Origin: a virus | Reading direction: 5' to 3' (one strand) | DNA length: 64,000 nucleotides | Virus record (IMG/VR): IMGVR_UViG_3300028837_001398 | Location: 8,436 to 72,435 of that record | Shown: one piece after another, positions 37,651 to 45,511 of the stretch | How positions within the stretch are numbered: position 1 is the first letter of the stretch | Layout: every line of letters starts with the position of its first letter | Position numbers and translations under genes: made by a program | The notes under the pieces: generated by a model | The model's database searches: none | Told to the model about the DNA's origin: nothing | What the model saw: only the letters and a program-made list of their open reading frames with translations

Positions 37651-39102
37651 TCAACCCCACCCGATCCGGAACGGAGGTGCCTCTTCGTCCTGAAGCATCA
37701 GGGCCCACAATGCCCAGACCAGAGCGTCTAACCGATCTGGGCTGTGTGCTCCCTCGTAGCCGTTCGCGGTCATGTGCATGAGCTGATACTCAAGATCCTC
37801 GAACCTGCCCACATGGTGCACACGGCCTTGCTCGTACAGGGAAGCCACAGGCTCAGCCCGCCGCTCTTTGCCCCGACTTGCATTCACCTTCTTGTACCGC
37901 ACGTTCCTGTCAACTGTGCGAATATTGACCTCGACGAGATCCCCCCCGTTGTTGGCCTCGCCAACGATGCAGTCCCCTCCGTACCGACCCATCGCATCGA
38001 CCGCGCGTTGCGCCCACGTATTCGGAGAGAAGACCCCACTGCGGTCGGACAGAACATAGCCGTGTCCGTCCACACCGAGCCCTGCAACTGCAATACCCGT
38101 CTCGTCCGACTCCGCATTGCTCGTCACCGCTGGGTCAATGGCCACCACGACTCGCTTCATCTCTGGCGCCGTCGATACGCGCAAATCATCCAGCATCGCC
38201 TGTGTCCACATGGCCCCCCGGACCTCTGCCTGCGGGTTCTGCTGATAGACTGCATCCCAGACGTGCCCGCGGGTTCCCGCCTTGATCGCGGCCAACGCTT
38301 CACTGCCGATCCGTTCGGGCCACAACGGCGCGCCAACCTCCCGGCCGAGAAGATCGTTCTCTTCCGCCTCTGCTGGCAGCCGCAACACCTCCCAATGCTC
38401 ACCCCCGTTTGCCTCATCCGCCATAAGCCAACCTGGGAAGTCCCACACGTCATACCGCGTACAAACCACCACAATGGGCCCGTTCGGCACACGTGGACGG
38501 AAGATCGGTTGGTACCAATGCTCGAAGAGCTGGCGCGTGTGCTTGCGGTTCCGGGCATCTATCTCTGTCTTGTGCGGGTCGTCGATGATTGCGATCTCTG
38601 CACCGTGTCCCGGCAACGGTCCCCCGACACCCGAAGCGTGCAGACGCCCCCGGTGGCCTGCGATCTCCCAATGACTGACGGCATACGATTCCTGCGATAC
38701 CTTGATGCCGAAGAGCTCTTCGCCCACATCCTCCATGGTGCGGCGAGCATCCCGAGAGAGCGAATGGGCCAGGTCGGCGGTGTGGCACGTCAGAATCATG
38801 CGACGGTCTGGATTCCGGCCCATGGCATAGCAGGGGAAGTTCCGGCTCACAATGTCGCTCTTCCCGTGCTGTGAGGGGATGCACACGATCAACCGCAGGA
38901 TCTCGCCTCGCTCTACGGCTTCGAGGTATTCACACAGGAGCAGATGGACCTTCGAGGGTTGCCAGGCGCCAGCGCTGGAATACGTGATAAAGTCCGCGAG
39001 TCCCCGGCGCGCCCCTCGCCGGTTCAACTCGAGTCGGGCCGCTGCTCGGGCCTCCAGTTCAGCGCGGCTTAGCTCCTTCGGCAATCGCTTTGAGTTCGTC
39101 AT
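37651..39102 (-). CDS. terL: Terminase large subunit
   Basis: P.QHGKS Walker A variant, IIDDPHK Walker B, YQQNP, AIDPA and SPDRLDA nuclease motifs; start codon uncertain. Confidence 0.95.
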   Translation of the reverse strand: MTNSKRLPKELSRAELEARAAARLELNRRGARRGLADFITYSSAGAWQPSKVHLLLCEYLEAVERGEILRLIVCIPSQHGKSDIVSRNFPCYAMGRNPDRRMILTCHTADLAHSLSRDARRTMEDVGEELFGIKVSQESYAVSHWEIAGHRGRLHASGVGGPLPGHGAEIAIIDDPHKTEIDARNRKHTRQLFEHWYQPIFRPRVPNGPIVVVCTRYDVWDFPGWLMADEANGGEHWEVLRLPAEAEENDLLGREVGAPLWPERIGSEALAAIKAGTRGHVWDAVYQQNPQAEVRGAMWTQAMLDDLRVSTAPEMKRVVVAIDPAVTSNAESDETGIAVAGLGVDGHGYVLSDRSGVFSPNTWAQRAVDAMGRYGGDCIVGEANNGGDLVEVNIRTVDRNVRYKKVNASRGKERRAEPVASLYEQGRVHHVGRFEDLEYQLMHMTANGYEGAHSPDRLDALVWALWALMLQDEEAPPFRIGWG

Positions 39103-39646
39103 CGCTGTATCCGCTAAGCTCGCGGTGCTCAATGGGACCTCCATCCTTGCCCGTGTGCTCGTAACGGCTAGAGTCCCGCCATCGATCTGGAAGCCTGTTC
39201 TTCAGGTAGAAAATCTGCGCAGTTGTGTCCGGGAGAACGGTCTTCGTGACCTTCTCCCGCCGCACCACACGGGGCACGTTCTTCTTGACATCCAGTTCGA
39301 CGACCTCCCTAGTCTCCTCGTAGGTGTAACCCAGCGCTCGACGGTATAGGGCGCCCTCTACCCGTAGATCCACCTCCTGCTTGCTCTCCTTTAGGGCTTC
39401 GGCCAACTCGGGGTGAAGGCGGATTACCTCGTAGAAGTAGGTCGCGGAGTAGCCCAGAGCCTCGGCTATCTGGGCATTGGTGCATCCTTGCCGAGCAAGT
39501 TGGCGCGCTATCTCGACCGAACGCTCCCCCTGCCATTTGCTACGGTTCCCCCTCCGCTTCCCCTTAGCCTCGGCTTTCGGCTTCTCCCCATCGCCTGCCG
39601 GGGGATTCTCGGCCGCAGTCTGTTCAGCTTTGTCCTCGTCTGCCAT
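39059..39646 (-). CDS. terS: Terminase small subunit
   Basis: HTH (G.T.AQIAEALG), VEGALYRRALGY, PDTTAQIFYLKNR and TGKDGGPI motifs. Confidence 0.88.
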   Translation of the reverse strand: MADEDKAEQTAAENPPAGDGEKPKAEAKGKRRGNRSKWQGERSVEIARQLARQGCTNAQIAEALGYSATYFYEVIRLHPELAEALKESKQEVDLRVEGALYRRALGYTYEETREVVELDVKKNVPRVVRREKVTKTVLPDTTAQIFYLKNRLPDRWRDSSRYEHTGKDGGPIEHRELSGYSDDELKAIAEGAKPR

Positions 39647-39680
39647 AGCGCCTTTCGCTCACTATCCCGGCCTCGCCCAA

Positions 39681-39746
39681 CCAAAAGCCAAGCGCCCAGG
39701 GACACTATTCCCTGAGCGCGTCTGCGGTTGTTCCGCTTCGCCCGCC
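39681..39746 (-). terminator. Leader attenuator upstream of terS (near-identical to 32651-32716)
   Basis: GGCGGG..GCGGaacaaCCGC, then GCGCTCAGGGA-atagtg-TCCCTGGGCGC, then TTGGCTTTTGG. Confidence 0.8.
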
Positions 39747-39843
39747 TGGTTATGTCGGCTGGCCTCCCAACTCAACCTCGGCCCTGGGTTTTTCCTTTCA
39801 GCCTCGGCATCAACGCTGGTCCGCCATGCTGATTGTCAGTCTG

Positions 39844-39874
39844 ACTATACCATTTTAGGGTACGACGTTGTCAA
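39844..39874 (-). promoter_or_regulatory. Promoter of the packaging operon, 19-bp spacer
   Basis: TTGACA-19-TATAGT with TGn extension. Confidence 0.6.
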
Positions 39875-39890
39875 GGGCGTTGAAAGGGGA

Positions 39891-39966
39891 TGGAGCGGGG
39901 CACGGGACTCGAACCCGGGGCCTTCAGTCTGGAAGACTGATGCTCTACCATCTGAGCTATCCCCGC
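39891..39966 (-). tRNA. trnG: tRNA-Gly(UCC), 76 nt, encoded CCA, mispairs at 7:66 and 49:65
   Basis: GCGGGGA TA GCTC AGATGGTA GAGC A TCAGT CTTCCAG ACTGA AGGCC CCGGG TTCGAGT CCCGT GCCCCGC T CCA. Confidence 0.92.
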
Positions 39967-39977
39967 TCAGCCACAGA

Positions 39978-40008
39978 ACCCTACCATGCCACAGGGGTAT
40001 TGTGTCAA
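39978..40008 (-). promoter_or_regulatory. Possible tRNA promoter, 19-bp spacer
   Basis: TTGACA-19-TAGGGT with TGn extension, just upstream of the tRNA. Confidence 0.45.
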
Positions 40009-40955
40009 GGTTTCGGCACCGCCAGGTAGCTCTGGGCCCATTGGGCCAGAGCGGATGCCCTGTCGCCACCATCAAGTTCGCCCCGGGCCTGCATCACATC
40101 CAGGGCCTTGGCGATCACTGCGGCATCTTTGGGTTTGAGTCGATCCTTCCCGAGGACGCTAGCCAGCGGTACAGGGTGCCCGTGTTTGGGCTCACCCGTC
40201 TCTGTATCCCGCCACCCCTCCTCAAGGTCTCCCCGATGCTGCTCGAAGACATCCAGCAGAATCATCAGCGCCGTCGCGCCATTGGTGAGGTCATTTGCCG
40301 CCCTCACCTCATCCAGATCATCCAGGAAGCGATCATACTCTGATACCCGGGCCAGAATGGTATGATCAGGTTTCGGCAACGCAGACAGCCCCTTGAGAAC
40401 ATCTTTCAGCCTCTCTATCTCTTCTGGCAGAAAAGCGAAGGTCACCACGAGCAGATCCAGGTTGGCTTCGCTCAGACCGGCCAAGGCCACCTTCTCCATC
40501 TCGTCCAGAACCTTCGAGTCCAGGCCGGCATATTGCTTGAGCTCCATTGCCTCGATCTCCTCGTACAGGCTCCGCAGGATGGCCATGTCATCCTCACCCG
40601 CCAAGGCATTGTGCGATAGCTGTACAGCAACTTGCTCCTCTCGCGTCAGGTCCGCCTCGGTGTAAAGAACCAGCACCTCTGCCAGGCCGGCTTCCCGCGC
40701 CGCCATGACCCGATGATTGCCAGACATCGCTCGAAACGTCCCTTCCGGTGTGCGACAGCAGAAGGGGACTGAGGTCAGGGCGCCATCGCGGCGGATGTTG
40801 TCCACGAGGTTGCGGAAGGTCTCGTTCCGCATGAACCGAGCATTCTTCTCGAGTAGCTCGATGCTCCCAACCGGCACTATGGCCAGCTTGAGCCCCTTGG
40901 GCAGCCGCTTGTTGATCTCCCCTACGTCATCTTCCCGTGCTTCTCCATCCACCAT
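40005..40955 (-). CDS. ParB/Srx N-terminal domain protein of a DNA-modification cassette
   Basis: KNARFM...LVDNIRRDG.L...P and SGNHRV.AA motifs. Confidence 0.82.
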   Translation of the reverse strand: MVDGEAREDDVGEINKRLPKGLKLAIVPVGSIELLEKNARFMRNETFRNLVDNIRRDGALTSVPFCCRTPEGTFRAMSGNHRVMAAREAGLAEVLVLYTEADLTREEQVAVQLSHNALAGEDDMAILRSLYEEIEAMELKQYAGLDSKVLDEMEKVALAGLSEANLDLLVVTFAFLPEEIERLKDVLKGLSALPKPDHTILARVSEYDRFLDDLDEVRAANDLTNGATALMILLDVFEQHRGDLEEGWRDTETGEPKHGHPVPLASVLGKDRLKPKDAAVIAKALDVMQARGELDGGDRASALAQWAQSYLAVPKP

Positions 40956-42232
40956 GACAGAGCTTCCTCCAGTGACCACCGGCCCGCCCCTGCTTGATAG
41001 TTCAGGCGCGGCGGATTCTTCTTTCGGCTCAGGAGTTGAAACAGACCCCGATACTTTGAGGATACGGGCCTTTCCGTGAATGCCGTTGTGCCTATTCTGC
41101 TCACCCGTCCAGAGAAGTGTTGCTGCAAGTAAATCTGCACCTCTGTGCTCAAGGCGACCGCCAGAATCAGCTTCGCTAGCCGCGGGTAGATCGTGGGGCG
41201 CACCGGGAAGTCCGAAAGCATGTAGATTCGGCCGACCTCACGCCGGACGAAGTGGCCGATGAACCCCATAGAGCCGATGATCTTCCCGTTTGCCAGCACC
41301 GCCAACGAGGCGGTTGGCTTCACCGGGACTATCCCGGGATTCAGATAAAGACTCCGCAACTCATTGAACTGTGCCGCGCTCAGACCGGCAATAGACAGCC
41401 TTGTGTGTTCTGCGATCCGCAACGCTTCATCCGCTATCAGCGTCCCCGCCCCCTCCGTCTTCTGCACCGGGGATGCCAGCCAACGCCGGCCCGACGAGTT
41501 CCCGTATACCCACAGTGGCTTGGAACGCGCCGAACTCTGCATGATCGCCACGGCCTCGCCCAGGTCCGGCTGAGGTTCATCTCGAGCGATCAGCCAGTAG
41601 GGCCGCTTCACCAACTGCGCCCGCACCAAAGCCATGCGCTGTTCGTCGAAGATCTCATAGCTCGGCTCGTCCCAGTCGAACACGGCCTCCATCGACCTGT
41701 AGATGCGCTCATATCCGCCGCGATATGTGGGAGGGAATGTGATGAATCCTGCGTCAACAGGAGCCTGCTCGAGCCAGTCCAAAACATCCCCGGCCCAGAA
41801 CCGCTTCAAATGCACGGTGCCCGCGGTCAGTTCTATCTTCTGCAACGTTTCAGCGTGCAGCCGCTTCCACTGCGCCTTGTATGCCTGCCGCTGCCTCTGG
41901 TAGTAGGGGGCAGTCTTCCCGTAGCCCCCGAGCAGTTGGGTTGAGAGCAGGATAGTGGCAACCGCGGATGCTGGATAGCCCAGCCACGGAGAGAGCCACT
42001 CATACTCTGGATCCCGCACCTCAATGCGGAAAGGCTGTCCAGCGAGGTAACTGCCCACGCAGCAGCTATACAGGCTAACATCGTTGCCGCTCAACTCATA
42101 CCCGAGCGGCGCCAAGGACCGCTCTACCGTGAAGTTCCCCGAACACCCCACGTACACTGAAGGGACAGACCACCCTTTCACCGATGTGACGATGACCGAC
42201 CGCAGGTCTGCCCCTACCGATCCAATGAACAT
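40922..42232 (-). CDS. Adenine methylase-like domain fused to a Mom-like GNAT domain (putative anti-restriction DNA modification enzyme)
   Basis: N-terminal YVGCSGNF / GNDV / FPPTY Rossmann motifs; C-terminal LAVLANGKIIGSMGF, YMLSDF, RLAKLIL, TTAFT and KYRG GNAT-like pattern. Confidence 0.7.
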   Translation of the reverse strand: MFIGSVGADLRSVIVTSVKGWSVPSVYVGCSGNFTVERSLAPLGYELSGNDVSLYSCCVGSYLAGQPFRIEVRDPEYEWLSPWLGYPASAVATILLSTQLLGGYGKTAPYYQRQRQAYKAQWKRLHAETLQKIELTAGTVHLKRFWAGDVLDWLEQAPVDAGFITFPPTYRGGYERIYRSMEAVFDWDEPSYEIFDEQRMALVRAQLVKRPYWLIARDEPQPDLGEAVAIMQSSARSKPLWVYGNSSGRRWLASPVQKTEGAGTLIADEALRIAEHTRLSIAGLSAAQFNELRSLYLNPGIVPVKPTASLAVLANGKIIGSMGFIGHFVRREVGRIYMLSDFPVRPTIYPRLAKLILAVALSTEVQIYLQQHFSGRVSRIGTTAFTERPVSSKYRGLFQLLSRKKNPPRLNYQAGAGRWSLEEALSWWMEKHGKMT

Positions 42233-42245
42233 TTCACCCTCGCGG

Positions 42246-42665
42246 TTATCCTGCCCAGGGGAGCTCCTGATATGCCGGCACCGCACTCCGCTCGCACCCC
42301 CACTCCGGGACCGTGATGCCCAACTCCGTCTCGAGCCACTCCGCTACGAGTCGGCGATGGCACGCAACGCCCCGCTTCTCCCAGCACAGCAATACCACGT
42401 CCCCCTTCGGCAGTCTCTTCACGATATCCGATGCTTCCAGCGCCGCCAGCTTCTTCGCCATGTGTTGGTCGTACACCCCTTGATCAGACTGCTTGACCAT
42501 GTTCGGGTCTGGAGCCAGCGCAATCATTCTGCCGAGTCGCCACCCACGGGGAGGCCACCTGGCGATCGACACCTGTGCAAGCCCTTCAGGAAACCGCCGA
42601 CACATTCCGAAGTAACTGGTCCAGATGCGCCTAACTTTACGGCTACGCTTCCCTGAATCCACCAT
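42246..42665 (-). CDS. DUF488-family protein
   Basis: TSYF, SIARWPP, LAP and VLLCWE...CHRRLVAEWL motifs. Confidence 0.8.
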   Translation of the reverse strand: MVDSGKRSRKVRRIWTSYFGMCRRFPEGLAQVSIARWPPRGWRLGRMIALAPDPNMVKQSDQGVYDQHMAKKLAALEASDIVKRLPKGDVVLLCWEKRGVACHRRLVAEWLETELGITVPEWGCERSAVPAYQELPWAG

Positions 42666-43569
42666 CCCCTCCTCGTCCCGACACCAACGATGTTAGCCGG
42701 CGCCGTTCTAGTTCCTTCGCCAATGCCTGCTCGACCTGCCCGAACCATTGCTTCAGATTCCGAACCTTCCCCAGGTCCAATTCGACTGCGTTCGTAAGGA
42801 GTTTCGCGCTCACCCTCTGCAGTCTCTCGTCCCATGTCGTGGCGAGCAGATCCGATACCTTGTCTAGCGCGGCCAGGAACCGCACCCGTGACTTCTGCTC
42901 CTCCTCGCTCAGAACCCGGACCGTGAACAGAGCATCTTGGTCCTGTGATCCCCCAACCATGCCAGGATTCCTCATGATCCTTACCAAGTGTCCCACTTCA
43001 TGCTGCGTCAGCCCATTCCGAACAGCGTGCAGAGCCACCTTCATCTGTTCCTCGGGATCCTCCACCTGCGCGATGAACCACGCTGCCCCCGGCCCCAGAG
43101 AACCCGAGATCACCAGCGCCCGCACCCCCTTCCCAAGCGAGCAGAGCTGGAGCTTGTCCCTCACATACTGCACGCTCTTCCCCGTCGTCTCTGCGATGCT
43201 TTCCACTGTCATATCATAGGTGCCCCGCATGGTCGCGTACGCATCCGCTTCTTCGATCACGTTGATGTCCTGTCGCTGGACATTCCCGACCACTGCCATC
43301 CGGTAGGCTTCTGCGTCCGTCGCCAATACAACGCGGCACGGAACCGTTGCTACCTTTGCCAGCTTCGCCGCTCGGAACCGCCGCTCGCCAGCGATGATCT
43401 CGAACCGGTGCCGCTGCCGCGGATGCGGGCGCACCACGAGATTCTGGAGAACCCCCTGCTCCAGGATAGATGCGGCCAGCTTGCCCAAAGACTCCTCATC
43501 GAAGTTATGCCGGTGCTGGGTCGCGTTGGCATCGATGTCGCTCGTCGGGATCTGCTGGATACCTACCAT
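42643..43569 (-). CDS. ParB/Spo0J-family protein
   Basis: LAASILEQGVLQNLVVR, IIAGERRFRAA and NVQRQDIN.IEEA motifs plus an HTH. Confidence 0.9.
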   Translation of the reverse strand: MVGIQQIPTSDIDANATQHRHNFDEESLGKLAASILEQGVLQNLVVRPHPRQRHRFEIIAGERRFRAAKLAKVATVPCRVVLATDAEAYRMAVVGNVQRQDINVIEEADAYATMRGTYDMTVESIAETTGKSVQYVRDKLQLCSLGKGVRALVISGSLGPGAAWFIAQVEDPEEQMKVALHAVRNGLTQHEVGHLVRIMRNPGMVGGSQDQDALFTVRVLSEEEQKSRVRFLAALDKVSDLLATTWDERLQRVSAKLLTNAVELDLGKVRNLKQWFGQVEQALAKELERRRLTSLVSGRGGDGGFREA

Positions 43570-43793
43570 GTCCCACCTTCCTCGCTCCAGGTCATCTGGT
43601 AGCGGGTCTGTGCCCTGTCCGCCCAGGCGTCCAGCCTGGGAATTGGCACTAGCGGCCTCCCATAAGGACAGTTGATTCGACGCCGGTCTGCCAGGGCTAC
43701 CCTCATATCGTGGCGGAATCTCCTCACATCCTCGTGGTTCCCGAAGTTGTAAGGGGCTTTGCCGCGCCTAGCCACGGTGCCCTCCTCGATCAA
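43563..43793 (-). CDS. Hypothetical protein
   Basis: Short co-oriented ORF upstream of parB. Confidence 0.4.
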   Translation of the reverse strand: MIEEGTVARRGKAPYNFGNHEDVRRFRHDMRVALADRRRINCPYGRPLVPIPRLDAWADRAQTRYQMTWSEEGGTW

Positions 43794-43977
43794 CCATCGC
43801 CTGGGTGAGGGCCTCTTCCCTGCGGATCCGCCGCACCAGCGGAGGGCTCATGTCTATGTCGGAGCCGCCGCATTCCGGGCAGCCCTCGTCTCCGAACGCC
43901 GCCCGCTCAGCAGCCGCCACATTGGGGAAGGGATGTCCGCATTCCTGACAACGCCACCACCAATCCGAGTGTCTCAT
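43768..43977 (-). CDS. Small Zn-ribbon protein
   Basis: CQECG...CPECGGSDID; GAGGAG RBS. Confidence 0.65.
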   Translation of the reverse strand: MRHSDWWWRCQECGHPFPNVAAAERAAFGDEGCPECGGSDIDMSPPLVRRIRREEALTQAMVDRGGHRG

Positions 43978-44013
43978 CTCGCTCCTCACTTCTGGGGTGT
44001 GCGGCCCCTTTCT

Positions 44014-44051
44014 TATGATAGTATCATACCAAACAAGCCGTCTGTTGTCAA
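44014..44051 (-). promoter_or_regulatory. Sigma70 promoter of the ParB/modification operon with an overlapping palindrome
   Basis: TTGACA-17-TATGAT; palindrome TATGATA-G-TATCATA at 44014-44028. Confidence 0.75.
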
Positions 44052-44144
44052 GGGTTTTTTACGGGGCTTGTGGTGCAGTTTAGGGGTGTTGGCGGGACGG
44101 GGTACTCCAGGGCATCGCGGAAACTGACGGGAATTGACGCGGGT

Positions 44145-44195
44145 CCAAAAGGTGGGTGCCCCTCCCCGCACGGAAAGGGCACCCGGTTCTCTCGT
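44145..44195 (-). terminator. Terminator/attenuator downstream of 44257-44535
   Basis: GAGAGAACC, then GGGTGCCCTTTCC-gtgc-GGGGAGGGGCACCC, then ACCTTTTGG. Confidence 0.65.
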
Positions 44196-44256
44196 TGCGG
44201 AGGCTAGCGCCCCCGCGAGGAGCGAGAGACTTATGCTTTCGCCGAAGGAGCGCGGC

Positions 44257-44535
44257 CTACCTCCTCGGGTCCTTGCTCTTCCCGACCCCCAATCGAAACT
44301 TCTCCGTCGTCGCAACGCTGAGTTCGTGCTCGCCGATGATAGGTTCACCGTTCTCGATCTTCAGATTGCGCACCGTGGCGAATGGATGCCCAGCGAACCA
44401 GTCCAGCAATGCCGCCTGGGCCGGGCTGACCCACCGGAGTTCGCCCGGCCCCAGGTCAATCCCCAGCGCGTCCATGAGATCCCGCAGCTTACGTTCCGCG
44501 ATCTCTGTCACCGGCTTCGTCGCTCGCGTACTCAT
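44257..44535 (-). CDS. Small putative regulator, paralog of 32831-33139
   Basis: ELRWVSPAQAALLDWF...LKIENGEPIIGE...EKFRLG. Confidence 0.65.
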   Translation of the reverse strand: MSTRATKPVTEIAERKLRDLMDALGIDLGPGELRWVSPAQAALLDWFAGHPFATVRNLKIENGEPIIGEHELSVATTEKFRLGVGKSKDPRR

Positions 44536-45233
44536 CTGGCTGCATTCCCCGTCCTTGCCTGCGCCCTCTCCCTCGCCCACCGGCCCTTCTGCCCCTCACT
44601 CATTCTCTTCCGTTGCTCCGGGGTGAACTTGTAGGTCCGTTGCTTCTCCACTGGCCTTTCGTCGGCAGGCTCCTCTTCCCCCTTCCGAGGATGGTGCAGC
44701 CCGATTGTCGCGCACCTGTTCCAGTGCCGGCGCTGCCTCACGACTTCGTCGGCCACCCGCCCTGCGCGAATCACAGTTACCCGCTGCGCCAGGTCCTCGA
44801 TCTCTGCGCTGGCATCGCCCACGATCTCGAGCAGTTCCTCCTGCCGCCGCAGCAGCGCGGGAACCGCGTACCTGGCACGCTTGAACGCCTCTTTCTTCTG
44901 CCCGAGCCGCCTGAGCAGGCTCTCCACCTGCTTGCGGGACATCTGCTCTATGTCAATTCTCTGGTCCAGTTCCGGCCACTTGTCCTCGACTGCCTCTGCC
45001 GTTGCCATGATCGCTGGTGCCTCCTTCGTGCTGTGGTCCGTCAACTCAAGCATCCCGAGCAAGTAGCGCAGTGCCATCCGCGGCATACACGGCTCCTGGG
45101 GAATCGCGCCGCAGTCAGCCGCCACGCTGACGCCGGTCAAGCCGCAGATGTGCTCGTAGCTCGTGGTCTCTTCGATGTAGGGGCAGCGCATGTCACGGGT
45201 CTCCGCTCGGATTGCTGTCTCAGTACTCGTCAT
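44532..45233 (-). CDS. Hypothetical protein (Cys motif and coiled coil)
   Basis: Coupled ORF in the early/middle gene string. Confidence 0.6.
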   Translation of the reverse strand: MTSTETAIRAETRDMRCPYIEETTSYEHICGLTGVSVAADCGAIPQEPCMPRMALRYLLGMLELTDHSTKEAPAIMATAEAVEDKWPELDQRIDIEQMSRKQVESLLRRLGQKKEAFKRARYAVPALLRRQEELLEIVGDASAEIEDLAQRVTVIRAGRVADEVVRQRRHWNRCATIGLHHPRKGEEEPADERPVEKQRTYKFTPEQRKRMSEGQKGRWARERAQARTGNAAR

Positions 45234-45483
45234 CTGGTTTCATCTCTCGTCCCGCCTGACCTAAGACTCTCGCGATATCCTCCATGCTCGGCAGCACCGC
45301 GTTCAGGGCCCGCATCGCCTTTATCAACGGCTCAGGATCATCATAGGCGCTGACGAGTAAGGTATCGAAGATGTCGCCGCGCCCTAGCCGGAGCCGAGAG
45401 CGTGATTGCTCCACATGGCAACGTAAGCGCCACTCCCGCCAGCACTGATGCAACTGTCCCAGCCAATTTCTCATGGTACGCAT
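45220..45483 (-). CDS. Hypothetical protein
   Basis: Co-oriented ORF with RBS. Confidence 0.45.
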   Translation of the reverse strand: MRTMRNWLGQLHQCWREWRLRCHVEQSRSRLRLGRGDIFDTLLVSAYDDPEPLIKAMRALNAVLPSMEDIARVLGQAGREMKPDDEY

Positions 45484-45511
45484 CTATTCTCGCTCCTCTC
45501 AGGGGTCTCCC

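Follow-up and report, generated by a model that had tools for sequence, protein, structure and literature searches.

A viral Dam-like/GNAT fusion gene frequently linked to tRNA-Gly-like genes: a candidate module for glycyl-tRNA-dependent DNA modification

The Mom enzyme of phage Mu moves glycine from Gly-tRNAGly onto the N6 of adenine in double-stranded DNA and accepts all three E. coli isoacceptors, according to a published account that bears out what the preliminary description of the locus analyzed here had stated about the Mom donor (PMC13219725). The same source names GNAT toxins such as TacT as enzymes that use Gly-tRNAGly as substrate. Staphylococci carry, within a cellular tRNA operon, extra non-proteogenic tRNAGly species (NP1-3) that have kept charging by GlyRS and lost translational features, and that serve the GNAT-fold aminoacyl-tRNA transferases FmhB, FemA and FemB, with lipid II as acceptor; as described there, they have UCC-type anticodons, never GCC, weak-type T-stem pairs, and TGC or TGT in the T loop of their genes (PMC7826273). 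In a third system, the gene of a post-replicative DNA-modifying enzyme, the phage thymine dioxygenase 5mYOX176, is paired with that of a ParB-N-type protein, ParB176, reported to be required for its activity on double-stranded DNA (PMC13229309).

The locus compared with these systems lies in a stretch of 64,000 nucleotides (the window) of IMG/VR virus record IMGVR_UViG_3300028837_001398, and was analyzed as one of 160 related loci carrying a full-length fusion gene, after dropping 3 of 163 in which the gene was cut by a contig end. The layout proposed in the preliminary description was confirmed: on the minus strand, one strong promoter-like site heads genes for Zn-ribbon, ParB, DUF488, fusion and ParB-N proteins, with tRNA-Gly(UCC) next and a hairpin of terminator type last. 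The promoter-like site (44023..44051; TTGACA-17-TATGAT with an upstream TG, 11/12 matches) stands out by match quality and not by site count, as 2 such sites were found in positions 39000-45500 against 1.4 expected from shuffles, which is not significant. The first gene (43768..43989) encodes a 73 aa Zn-ribbon protein (Zn_ribbon_8, 8.9e-05, under the Pfam cutoff) and is lineage-specific, its only homologue among the 160 loci being the window copy itself. It is uncertain whether the next ORF (43563..43793, 76 aa), likewise present in 1/160 loci and with no family match in Pfam and PHROG searches, is a real gene. Two accessory genes follow, encoding a ParB-type protein (42643..43569; ParB_N, PF02195, 1.2e-24; HTH_ParB, PF17762, 4.5e-17; TIGR00180, 7e-39) with homologues in 64/160 loci, and a DUF488 protein of the N3a subclade (42246..42665; PF22751, 4e-06; PF04343, 1.3e-05; phrog_2450) with homologues in 27, directly upstream of the fusion gene in 20 of them. 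At the heart of the cassette, two genes form a putative DNA-modification module to which one RNA gene is often added; here these are the 436 aa Dam-like/GNAT fusion (40922..42232; DAM-like-phage1, PF22555, 8.4e-75; GNAT-phage-like, PF22559, 1.2e-44; phrog_7858, 5e-93), a 324 aa partner of ParB-N/Srx fold (40005..40979; phrog_7405, 5e-67; weak ParB_N match) and the tRNA gene (39891..39966). The hairpin (39692..39719; 11 pairs, 8 of them G-C, with a T-rich tail) separates the tRNA from the small-terminase gene.

The predicted structure of the fusion enzyme (pLDDT 90.1) comprises a Dam-like Rossmann domain (residues ~1-250) and a GNAT domain (~262-436), the latter fold having been anticipated for the C-terminal part and recovered by structure comparison of the model. 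For residues 2-247 the best match was 2g1p_A, the Dam of E. coli, with Z 14.4 over 191 aligned residues, and the top matches were DNA adenine methyltransferases of class alpha, E. coli Dam and DpnM (2dpm, Z 12.9; ~190-197 residues aligned), with other Rossmann methyltransferases of many specificities close behind (Z 12-12.6). Like Dam and DpnM, the domain carries an acidic residue following strand 2 and a motif containing PP following strand 4, but it differs from them in its fusion to a GNAT domain, in the lack of a Pfam D12-class methylase match at E up to 0.1, and in the motif [FY]PP[TF][YF] (family consensus ISFPPTYxGGYE) that replaces DPPY, with Phe or Tyr for Asp in every sequence shown. 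As the catalytic Asp/Asn of DPPY is thus replaced, the domain probably no longer methylates, and we take it to resemble degenerate methylase-like scaffolds such as METTL14. It does retain a GxxG-type loop and D51, which is acidic and invariant, and may still bind SAM, or even be an active methylase of an unusual type.

The GNAT domain had been described as Mom-like, a label that holds for the fold but not for the sequence. Of 999 chains, 1y9k_D came first (Z 11.5) and Mom (8bv8_A) second, at Z 10.9 and an rmsd of 3.2 over 138 aligned residues; many ordinary acetyltransferases were within 1 Z of Mom, so the fold does not by itself identify an enzyme that depends on tRNA. No match to Pfam Mom (PF25680) was found, and profile comparison with hhalign gave probabilities of 4% and 6.8%. 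Like Mom, the fusion is a phage enzyme encoded late in the genome and, by motif reading, its GNAT domain is devoid of the glycine-rich R/QxxGxG/A CoA loop, at whose position the family consensus is VRPTxYxRLSKLVL. Unlike Mom, it has no HTH-like insertion by secondary structure, a whole Dam-like domain precedes it, and its partner looks obligate. The GNAT family also matches the C-terminus of phrog_2443, annotated in PHROG as 'amidoligase'.

The ParB-N/Srx-fold partner has a homologue in 158/160 loci, directly downstream of the fusion gene in 143, and its SGNHR motif is invariant. ParB-type DNA-binding proteins and terminase genes are constant neighbours. The pairing of a putative DNA-modifying enzyme with a ParB-N-type protein recalls 5mYOX176 and ParB176, from which the fusion differs in chemistry and enzyme fold; what suggests its dependence on the partner is adjacency.

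The new result of this work is comparative: the survey for a linked tRNA-Gly was strongly positive, with tRNA-Gly-like genes (81 elements) in 79/160 loci, the remaining 81 having none. In 36/80 viral loci ARAGORN identified tRNA-Gly (37 genes), along with 4 other tRNAs, and in 23/80 loci from bacterial genomes it identified tRNA-Gly with 0 others, for overall totals of 62 tRNA-Gly(-like) calls against only 4 of other species; a covariance model (R1) added degenerate copies to these calls. Most elements precede the fusion gene by 5-250 nt on the same strand, and so are probably co-transcribed with it; 72/81 are upstream on the same strand, and 66/81 at no more than 400 nt, a stretch in which uniform placement would put 2.8. 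In six loci, the window included, the element is downstream of the partner gene. A third set, of metagenome loci, which overlaps partly with the viral one, replicated the linkage (48/80). Carriers in culture include the Mycobacterium phages Jeon and Cepens, which grow on M. smegmatis mc2 155, and Gordonia phage Clawz. The tree requires at least 17 gains or losses; among 63 clusters at 80% protein identity, 37 had the tRNA in all members, 23 in none and 3 were mixed, and a large Streptomyces clade had no linked tRNA even with the search filters off. Fisher and binomial p-values for these contrasts, and for the feature contrasts below, overstate significance because the sequences are related by descent.

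The linked elements are real folded RNAs. In an alignment of 57 distinct tRNAs, 97.3% of the cells were paired and compensatory changes occurred in 18 of 21 pairs, a level reached by 0 of 500 shuffles. Positions G1, C2, C35, C36, G53, C61, G71, C72 and U73 were invariant, and G3 and C70 nearly so; we take these to be the bacterial GlyRS identity set plus the structural core. Set against a control of 96 other phage tRNAs, the 74 distinct sequences of linked elements gave a different picture for translation: U33 was present in 38/74 versus 92/96, a purine at 37 in 57/74 versus 95/96, G18G19 in the D loop in 47/74 versus 92/96, and TTC in the T loop in 50/74 versus 88/96. Position 34 was U in 37, A in 19, C in 17 and G in 0. 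Judged by sequence, many linked tRNAs have lost translation features while keeping the GlyRS identity set. They share with the staphylococcal species the TGC T loop (7/74), the absence of G34 and weak-type T-stem pairs (G51-C63 in only 3/74), together with a GNAT-fold partner enzyme for which transfer is predicted. They differ in being viral or prophage genes located beside the enzyme gene, in a likely acceptor that is DNA instead of lipid II, and in a far deeper degeneration that extends to A34, to any of C, A and G at position 33, and to T loops like CUCACGG. The tRNA-Gly genes belonging to the host in one Streptomyces genome are canonical, whereas the prophage-linked copy has C33.

The window tRNA is among the least altered, one of only 8/74 that keep all the scored canonical elongator features, and it has no TGC loop. 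ARAGORN located it as the single tRNA of the window, as previously stated; that claim does not extend to the whole 72,435-base record, which has a tRNA-Met outside the window. Direct reading verified the identity set noted before (G1-C72, C2-G71, G3-C70, C35, C36, U73 and encoded CCA) and the adjacent mispairs A7:G66 and C49:U65, where bases 65 and 66 look swapped, as Watson-Crick pairing would call for G65 and U66. Rfam RF00005 scored it at 54.9 bits, flagging both pairs as non-standard, and model R1 at 66.4 bits; its minimum-free-energy fold is a cloverleaf with an acceptor stem of 6 bp and a T stem of 4 bp. The two mispairs fall at the stacking junction of the acceptor and T stems. An assembly error was discarded because contigs from two other runs, one belonging to another sample (X3 record 11, 39818-40092) and one to another study (X5 record 18, 39699-40013), show 0 differences across the tRNA, an identity that speaks of sequence stability and is not proof of selection. 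The mispairs, presented earlier as a possible conserved defect, turned out not to be a family trait, with 7:66 unpaired in 2/57 aligned tRNAs and 49:65 in 3/57.

We favor, with a probability of about 0.65, the reading that the cassette is a module for DNA-adenine modification that depends on Gly-tRNA and brings its own dedicated donor. The Dam-like domain would recognize DNA and bind a flipped-out adenine, and the GNAT domain would transfer glycine from glycyl-tRNA to the adenine N6, by analogy with Mom; the likely product would be N6-glycyl-dA, which could rearrange to N6-carbamoylmethyl-dA or a relative. The ParB-N-type partner would probably act as loader or activator of the enzyme on double-stranded DNA. 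The adjacent tRNA-Gly would be charged by the host GlyRS, as suggested by its invariant identity elements, and in many lineages it would have drifted from the requirements of the ribosome and of EF-Tu, to which it may bind weakly, so that modification and translation would not have to compete for Gly-tRNA. The putative donor of the window, encoded at the operon's 3' end, has stayed close to a canonical tRNA-Gly(UCC). The linkage and the degenerate tRNAs suggest that viruses supply a private glycine donor for chemical modification of DNA.

Alternatively, the window copy could be decaying or dispensable, its mispairs being dinucleotide-swap damage instead of adaptation, with the enzyme using host Gly-tRNA as Mom does. 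The rarity of the mispairs in the family, the lack of a linked tRNA in the nearest relatives (L001, L002, L003 and L100) and in about half of the loci, the breadth of isoacceptors used by Mom, and a decayed tRNA remnant beside the mom gene in L226 agree with this, but all other positions of the window tRNA are intact, CCA and identity elements included, the cloverleaf remains its optimal fold, the sequence is stable between samples, and a tree neighbour, L015, shares the order fusion gene, ParB-N gene, tRNA; we consider this reading unlikely, the least so of the alternatives. Quite improbable is an ordinary translational tRNA, employed for codon supplementation or for rescue from tRNA-attacking host defences, whose adjacency would reflect genome organisation only. 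The control phage tRNAs are canonical, whereas half of the linked ones have no U33, several have no T-loop or D-loop core, and A34 is frequent; the almost exclusive occurrence of tRNA-Gly and its usual placement upstream of one particular gene also speak against this function. It would suit the window tRNA, with its canonical features, its capacity to decode GGA and GGG (45% of the glycine codons in 44 ORFs) and the second phage tRNA elsewhere in the record. Moron-like positions are common for phage tRNAs.

It is very improbable that the tRNA-like RNA is not a donor but the target of a GNAT that acetylates Gly-tRNA, as TacT-type toxins would suggest, or a 5' leader controlling processing or translation of the enzyme mRNA, as its usual position might indicate: the CoA loop is missing, C35, C36 and U73 would be needless in a processing signal, the element is downstream of the partner gene in the six loci mentioned, and the presence of a Dam-like domain suggests that the acceptor is an adenine in nucleic acid. 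We give the slightest chance to Gly-tRNA being used on an acceptor other than DNA adenine N6 (RNA, a nucleotide or a protein), or to an active methylase domain, both domains acting sequentially. The retained D51 and GxxG-type loop, the methyltransferases of many specificities that score near Dam, and the 'amidoligase' match are in favor; the best structural matches are nonetheless DNA adenine methyltransferases, the genes constantly nearby are those for ParB-type DNA-binding proteins and for terminase, and Mom offers the precedent of modification of adenine in double-stranded DNA (PMC13219725).

A tRNA-Gly gene also accompanies a minority of true mom genes. Among 80 such loci, tRNA-Gly(UCC) was found 124-206 nt directly upstream in three (L231, L234 and L236), and a degenerate copy just downstream in L226, compared to about half of the fusion loci (4/80 for mom); the only other tRNA at these 80 loci was one tRNA-Ala.

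The virus record, 72,435 bases long and with a completeness rating of 92%, contributes its bases 8436-72435 as the window. On the minus strand, a strong promoter-like site (44051..44023; TTGACA-17 nt-TATGAT with an upstream TG, 11 of 12 matches) is followed by an ORF for a 73-aa Zn-ribbon protein, a 76-aa ORF to which no family was assigned, and the gene of a ParB protein (42643-43569; ParB_N 1.2e-24, HTH_ParB 4.5e-17). Next come genes for a DUF488-N3a protein (42246-42665), a 436-aa fusion protein (40922-42232) matching both PF22555, 'DAM-like-phage1' (8.4e-75), and PF22559, 'GNAT-phage-like' (1.2e-44), and a 324-aa ParB-N-type protein (40005-40979; phrog_7405, 5e-67). A tRNA-Gly(UCC) gene (39966..39891) lies 38 nt past the ParB-N-type ORF, with a terminator-like hairpin 3' of it (39719..39692), and is followed by the genes of the small and large terminase.

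Relatives of the fusion protein were found in at least 548 viral stretches (of 571 listed), in 272 of 294 stretches from one-genome-per-species contigs, many of which are Streptomyces prophages, in 156 of 234 metagenome stretches and in 15 cultured-phage records. From each of the viral, genome and metagenome collections, the 80 best loci were analysed. ARAGORN detected a tRNA-Gly in 36 of the 80 viral loci, where its other calls were three tRNA-Met and one tRNA-Leu, and in 23 of the 80 genome loci, with zero other tRNAs; a covariance model of these linked genes (R1), built from 57 distinct sequences, picks up further degenerate copies. The preliminary description had proposed checking homologous cassettes for a linked tRNA-Gly, and by ARAGORN and R1 together at least one such element was present at 79 of the 160 loci having a full-length fusion gene (three loci in which that gene is cut were left out of the 160). 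Of the 81 elements, 72 precede the fusion gene in the same orientation, 3 precede it in the opposite orientation and 6 lie downstream; 66 fall within 400 nt upstream of the fusion gene, where 2.8 would be expected; a tRNA placed after the ParB-N gene is a minority layout, seen in the window, L015, L025 and L104. The linkage recurred in the metagenome set, which partly overlaps the viral one: 48 of 80 loci gave a match of at least 48 bits.

Linkage is nevertheless not universal, as 23 of the 63 protein clusters formed at 80% identity are without any linked tRNA, and an R1 search with filters off across six tRNA-less loci of the Streptomyces clade and L001 returned chance matches only (E of at least 0.9). 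The tree requires at least 17 gains or losses of the linked tRNA. In the cultured Mycobacterium phage Jeon, an annotated tRNA-Gly sits immediately 5' of the fusion gene, and Gordonia phage Clawz (NC_071004) has an unannotated, degenerate tRNA-Gly-like element with an aberrant T loop (L181:4823-4893; 43.2 bits against R1) 107 nt upstream of gp29, its fusion homologue. Other carriers in culture are Mycobacterium phages Cepens and Taptic, which like Jeon grow on M. smegmatis mc2 155, and Gordonia phage Soos, which like Clawz grows on G. rubripertincta. Tandem duplicated tRNA-Gly-like genes occur in L042:1478-1623 and L065:3245-3405, and the tRNA-Gly-like gene at L177:5858-5929 has an 8-nt anticodon loop that ARAGORN calls 'cacc'.

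As a family, the linked elements retain the cloverleaf, with 97.3% of cells paired and compensatory changes at 18 of 21 pairs, a level matched by 0 of 500 shuffles. Positions G1, C2, C35, C36, G53, C61, G71, C72 and U73 are invariant and G3 and C70 nearly so; these we take to be the GlyRS identity set plus the structural core. When 74 distinct linked sequences were set against 96 phage tRNAs taken as controls from unrelated loci, the identity elements were kept in the linked set (C35C36 in 74/74, GCG in 73/74, CGCU in 72/74), and the two groups differed at U33 (38/74 linked versus 92/96 control), a purine at 37 (57/74 versus 95/96), GG in the D loop (47/74 versus 92/96) and TTC in the T loop (50/74 versus 88/96). 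These contrasts are large, and their p-values ignore relatedness and are hence too optimistic. GG is missing from 27 of the 74 linked tRNAs and TTC from 24, with TGC in its place in 7; G51-C63 is found in 3/74 and an encoded CCA in 37/74. Position 34 is U in 37, A in 19, C in 17 and G in none of the linked set. U33, the purine at 37 and the D-loop GG are present in every one of the 16 control tRNA-Gly, of which five have G34. In a Streptomyces genome, the host tRNA-Gly genes are canonical and the prophage-linked copy has C33. Judged from these sequences, linked tRNAs have often lost features required by the ribosome and EF-Tu.

A parallel exists in the non-proteogenic tRNAGly of staphylococci, described as having UCC anticodons, a TGC or TGT T loop and weak T-stem pairs, as binding EF-Tu poorly, and, in 2020, as known from staphylococci alone (PMC7826273). 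GlyRS identity elements are likewise kept in the window tRNA and in the linked family.

Regarding the enzyme, the C-terminal part of the fusion protein does have the GNAT fold proposed in the preliminary description, with acetyltransferases matched at a Foldseek probability of 1.0 and a pLDDT of 93.2 for the domain modelled alone (175 residues). Its characterization as Mom-like stands for the fold but not for the sequence or the architecture. In the structure ranking, Mom (8bv8_A) was second of 999 chains against the GNAT domain (Z 10.9, rmsd 3.2, 138 aligned), with dozens of acetyltransferases within 1 Z of it. The fusion protein has no match to PF25680, the Mom family, only PF22555 and PF22559 at E values up to 0.1, whereas Mu Mom, as a control, matches PF25680 at 2.4e-75. 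Since hhalign probabilities were only 4% with the alignment at full length and 6.8% when the GNAT domain was compared by itself, we make no claim of sequence homology to Mom. Mom also has an HTH-like insertion, at about residues 175-209, which is essential for activity, whereas the fusion GNAT model contains the standard GNAT elements only, lacks any helical insertion of ~35 residues, and is preceded instead by the N-terminal Dam-like domain. The CoA-loop position of the family reads YxRLSKL, with no glycines. The family has invariant residues of its own (R293, D341, K354, T382, K393, Y394 and R395), and hhalign gave no reliable residue-by-residue match to the catalytic R111, S124, D149 and R151 of Mom.

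The donor role of Gly-tRNA in the Mom reaction, mentioned in the preliminary description, is published: the phage Mu enzyme moves glycine from Gly-tRNAGly onto adenine N6 of dsDNA, and rearrangement of the glycyl group then yields the carbamoylmethyl adduct; a mass of 308 u is given for the nucleoside, each of the three E. coli tRNAGly isoacceptors is accepted, and the 8BV8 structure shows a GNAT that carries an HTH-like insertion (PMC13219725). By virtue of the linked tRNA-Gly and the Dam-like domain, we propose that the fusion protein could similarly use Gly-tRNAGly on adenine N6 of dsDNA. Separately, the GNAT domain of the window's fusion gene (residues 282-438 of the 454-aa ORF) also matches phrog_2443, a family annotated as 'amidoligase enzyme', at its C-terminal end (positions 629-782 of 801), and some homologues bear extra domains (P0044 with PF04480 and PF18741, P0060 with HNH PF01844), so that the same GNAT may work in other phage modification pathways.

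Both domains occur in one ~430-aa protein (phrog_7858, 5e-93, residues 14-452), and among the 237 relatives of the fusion protein PF22555 and PF22559 were present together in 120 of 120 of the matches listed. A structure model built from 42 homologues (pLDDT 90.1) had E. coli Dam (2g1p_A) as the best match of residues 2-247 (Z 14.4, rmsd 4.4, 191 aligned), giving this domain the fold of a Dam-type N6-adenine DNA methyltransferase. In place of the Dam-type (D/N/S)PP(Y/F/W) motif, however, the fusion family has [FY]PP[TF][YF], with P167 and P168 invariant and F or Y preceding them in every row displayed of the family alignment. At the places in that alignment of SAM-binding motif I and of the acidic residue that follows strand 2, the invariant C30, S31 and G32 (VGCSGNF) and D51 would be compatible with nucleotide binding. 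Against solved structures, phmmer with the fusion protein gave no matches, and the family profile gave chance matches only (E of at least 0.18, mostly kinases). We infer that the N-terminal half is probably a methylase-like domain that has degenerated and serves to bind the target, and that the GNAT fused to it probably works without CoA.

Of the 160 loci, 158 have a ParB-N homologue after the fusion gene; the ParB protein was present in 64, DUF488 in 27 and the large terminase in 85, and the Zn-ribbon gene in the window only. From these counts, the core of the module consists of the fusion and ParB-N genes, and the tRNA is optional. Complex prediction for the two core proteins reached a best score of 0.06 against a mark of 0.32, which counts neither way on binding; as a precedent, a phage thymine dioxygenase requires a ParB-like activator on dsDNA (PMC13229309). 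No NCBIfam or PADLOC model covers the fusion protein or the ParB-N partner. The DUF488 protein of the window matches the PADLOC candidate defence models PDC-M45C (3.6e-08) and PDC-M19A.

Examination of 80 loci with true mom genes (PF25680) revealed tRNA-Gly(UCC) genes 124-206 nt upstream of mom in three viral contigs (L231:5806-5879, L234:5800-5873 and L236:5724-5797), a degenerate tRNA-Gly-like element immediately 3' of mom (L257:6625-6691) and a decayed tRNA remnant (L226:5715-5800); the other tRNAs amounted to a single tRNA-Ala. The one enzyme family known to modify DNA by means of Gly-tRNA thus also shows this linkage, though infrequently. Phage tRNA genes, gene neighbourhoods and methylase fusions go unmentioned in the main-text portions consulted of the Mom paper (PMC13219725) and of a 2023 preprint, and a literature search taking in few subscription journals and no supplements retrieved nothing about donor tRNAs encoded by phages, about PF22555, PF22559 or PF22751, or about this cassette neighbourhood.

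On comparative evidence, the general idea that the phage supplies a tRNA reserved for DNA modification of the Mom type is well supported, though unproven. Our broader reading, to which we assign a probability of roughly 0.55, is that phages and prophages of many bacterial phyla encode GlyRS-chargeable, non-translational tRNA-like RNAs as private cofactors of an uncharacterised DNA-hypermodification machine composed of a Dam-like plus GNAT glycyl-transferase and a ParB-N protein. On this reading, dedicated 'non-proteogenic' tRNAs would for the first time be found in viruses, which would repeatedly have evolved or retained private donors without translational features. Modification of DNA dependent on tRNA is so far a recent finding for one enzyme family, Mom, which uses host tRNAs; under our reading, DNA aminoacylation of this type would be widespread and not a peculiarity of phage Mu, and a second, Dam-like-fused GNAT family, unrelated to Mom in sequence as far as detectable, would perform Mom-like chemistry. 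A degenerate tRNA beside a GNAT gene would then serve as a genomic marker for aminoacyl-tRNA-dependent enzymes, and some 'odd' single tRNAs of phage genomes would be explained. A further prediction is that the DNA of phages cultured on harmless hosts, such as Jeon and Cepens of Mycobacterium smegmatis and Clawz of Gordonia, contains an adduct, which would bear on restriction evasion and on the sequencing and cloning of such phage DNA.

The window's own tRNA scores 54.9 bits against Rfam RF00005 (threshold 29), its minimum-free-energy fold is the cloverleaf, and it has G1-C72, C2-G71, G3-C70, C35, C36, U73 and CCA. Its two mismatches, A7 with G66 and C49 with U65 (65-66 are UG, where pairing would require GU), are real, as contigs from a second sample and a different study show zero differences over the tRNA. 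The preliminary description proposed checking homologous cassettes for conserved defects at these pairs; they are not a family trait, since defects at 7:66 and 49:65 occur in only 2 and 3 of 57 tRNAs, respectively. The mispairs sit at the stacking point of the acceptor and T stems, adjoining the pairs that set EF-Tu affinity, and C49:U65 is flanked in the T stem by C50-G64 and G51-C63. The T loop is TTCGAGT and G18G19 are kept, so that the TGC or TGT loop and the loss of the D/T-loop core of the staphylococcal type are absent; the window tRNA is one of the 8 of 74 linked tRNAs in which all scored canonical features are intact. The codons that it could read, GGA and GGG, make up 45% of the glycine codons. 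Its fusion protein falls in the tree next to relatives without a linked tRNA, no closer cassette relatives (above 45% identity) appeared in the metagenome scan, and a 67%-identical protein (P0002) lies on a 1365-base contig without neighbouring context.

With mispairs that are not a family trait, canonical features, GGA/GGG decoding and tRNA-less relatives, both a donor and a decaying copy are possible: the window copy may be a recent or dual-use donor in which the mispairs would weaken EF-Tu binding, or it may be a tRNA in decay. We rejected a third possibility, the remnant of an integration site, given that the tRNA is full length and located between the ParB-N and terminase genes of a virus record; the dissimilarity of linked tRNAs to host tRNAs also disfavours it. 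A 42-nt pattern from the window tRNA had no matches in viral sequences. A 26-nt pattern matched 18 loci, with an ARAGORN tRNA-Gly in 17 of them that by reading has standard pairs at 49:65 and 7:66; the fusion gene was found in none of the 18, which were used as controls.

The tRNA-Gly was correctly described as the sole tRNA in the window, but the same virus record contains a tRNA-Met(CAT) outside it (G000:C1:5541-5612; L263:1498-1572), and L019, L029 and L070 likewise have a tRNA-Met, 3.2-3.7 kb 3' of the fusion gene. An aberrant tRNA-Gly(UCC) that has TGC in the T loop and C at position 37 occurs in three dispersed copies on the chromosome of Streptomyces genome G002 (G002:C1:8329809-8329878, 3304968-3305037 and 5671742-5671811; L270, L273 and L275), in ordinary contexts (GroEL, OYE oxidoreductase, PTS, endonuclease V) and far from the prophage fusion gene of that genome, itself without a linked tRNA; these could be host non-proteogenic tRNAGly, for example for a cell-wall glycine bridge. 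Finally, the 10-mer CCTTGACAAC, which includes the cassette promoter's -35 hexamer, is found on the minus strand of the window at 44044-44053 and again, as an exact copy 15 nt past the tRNA-Gly, at 39867-39876; with a TATAGT 19 nt downstream, this second copy may form another phage promoter ahead of the terminase genes.
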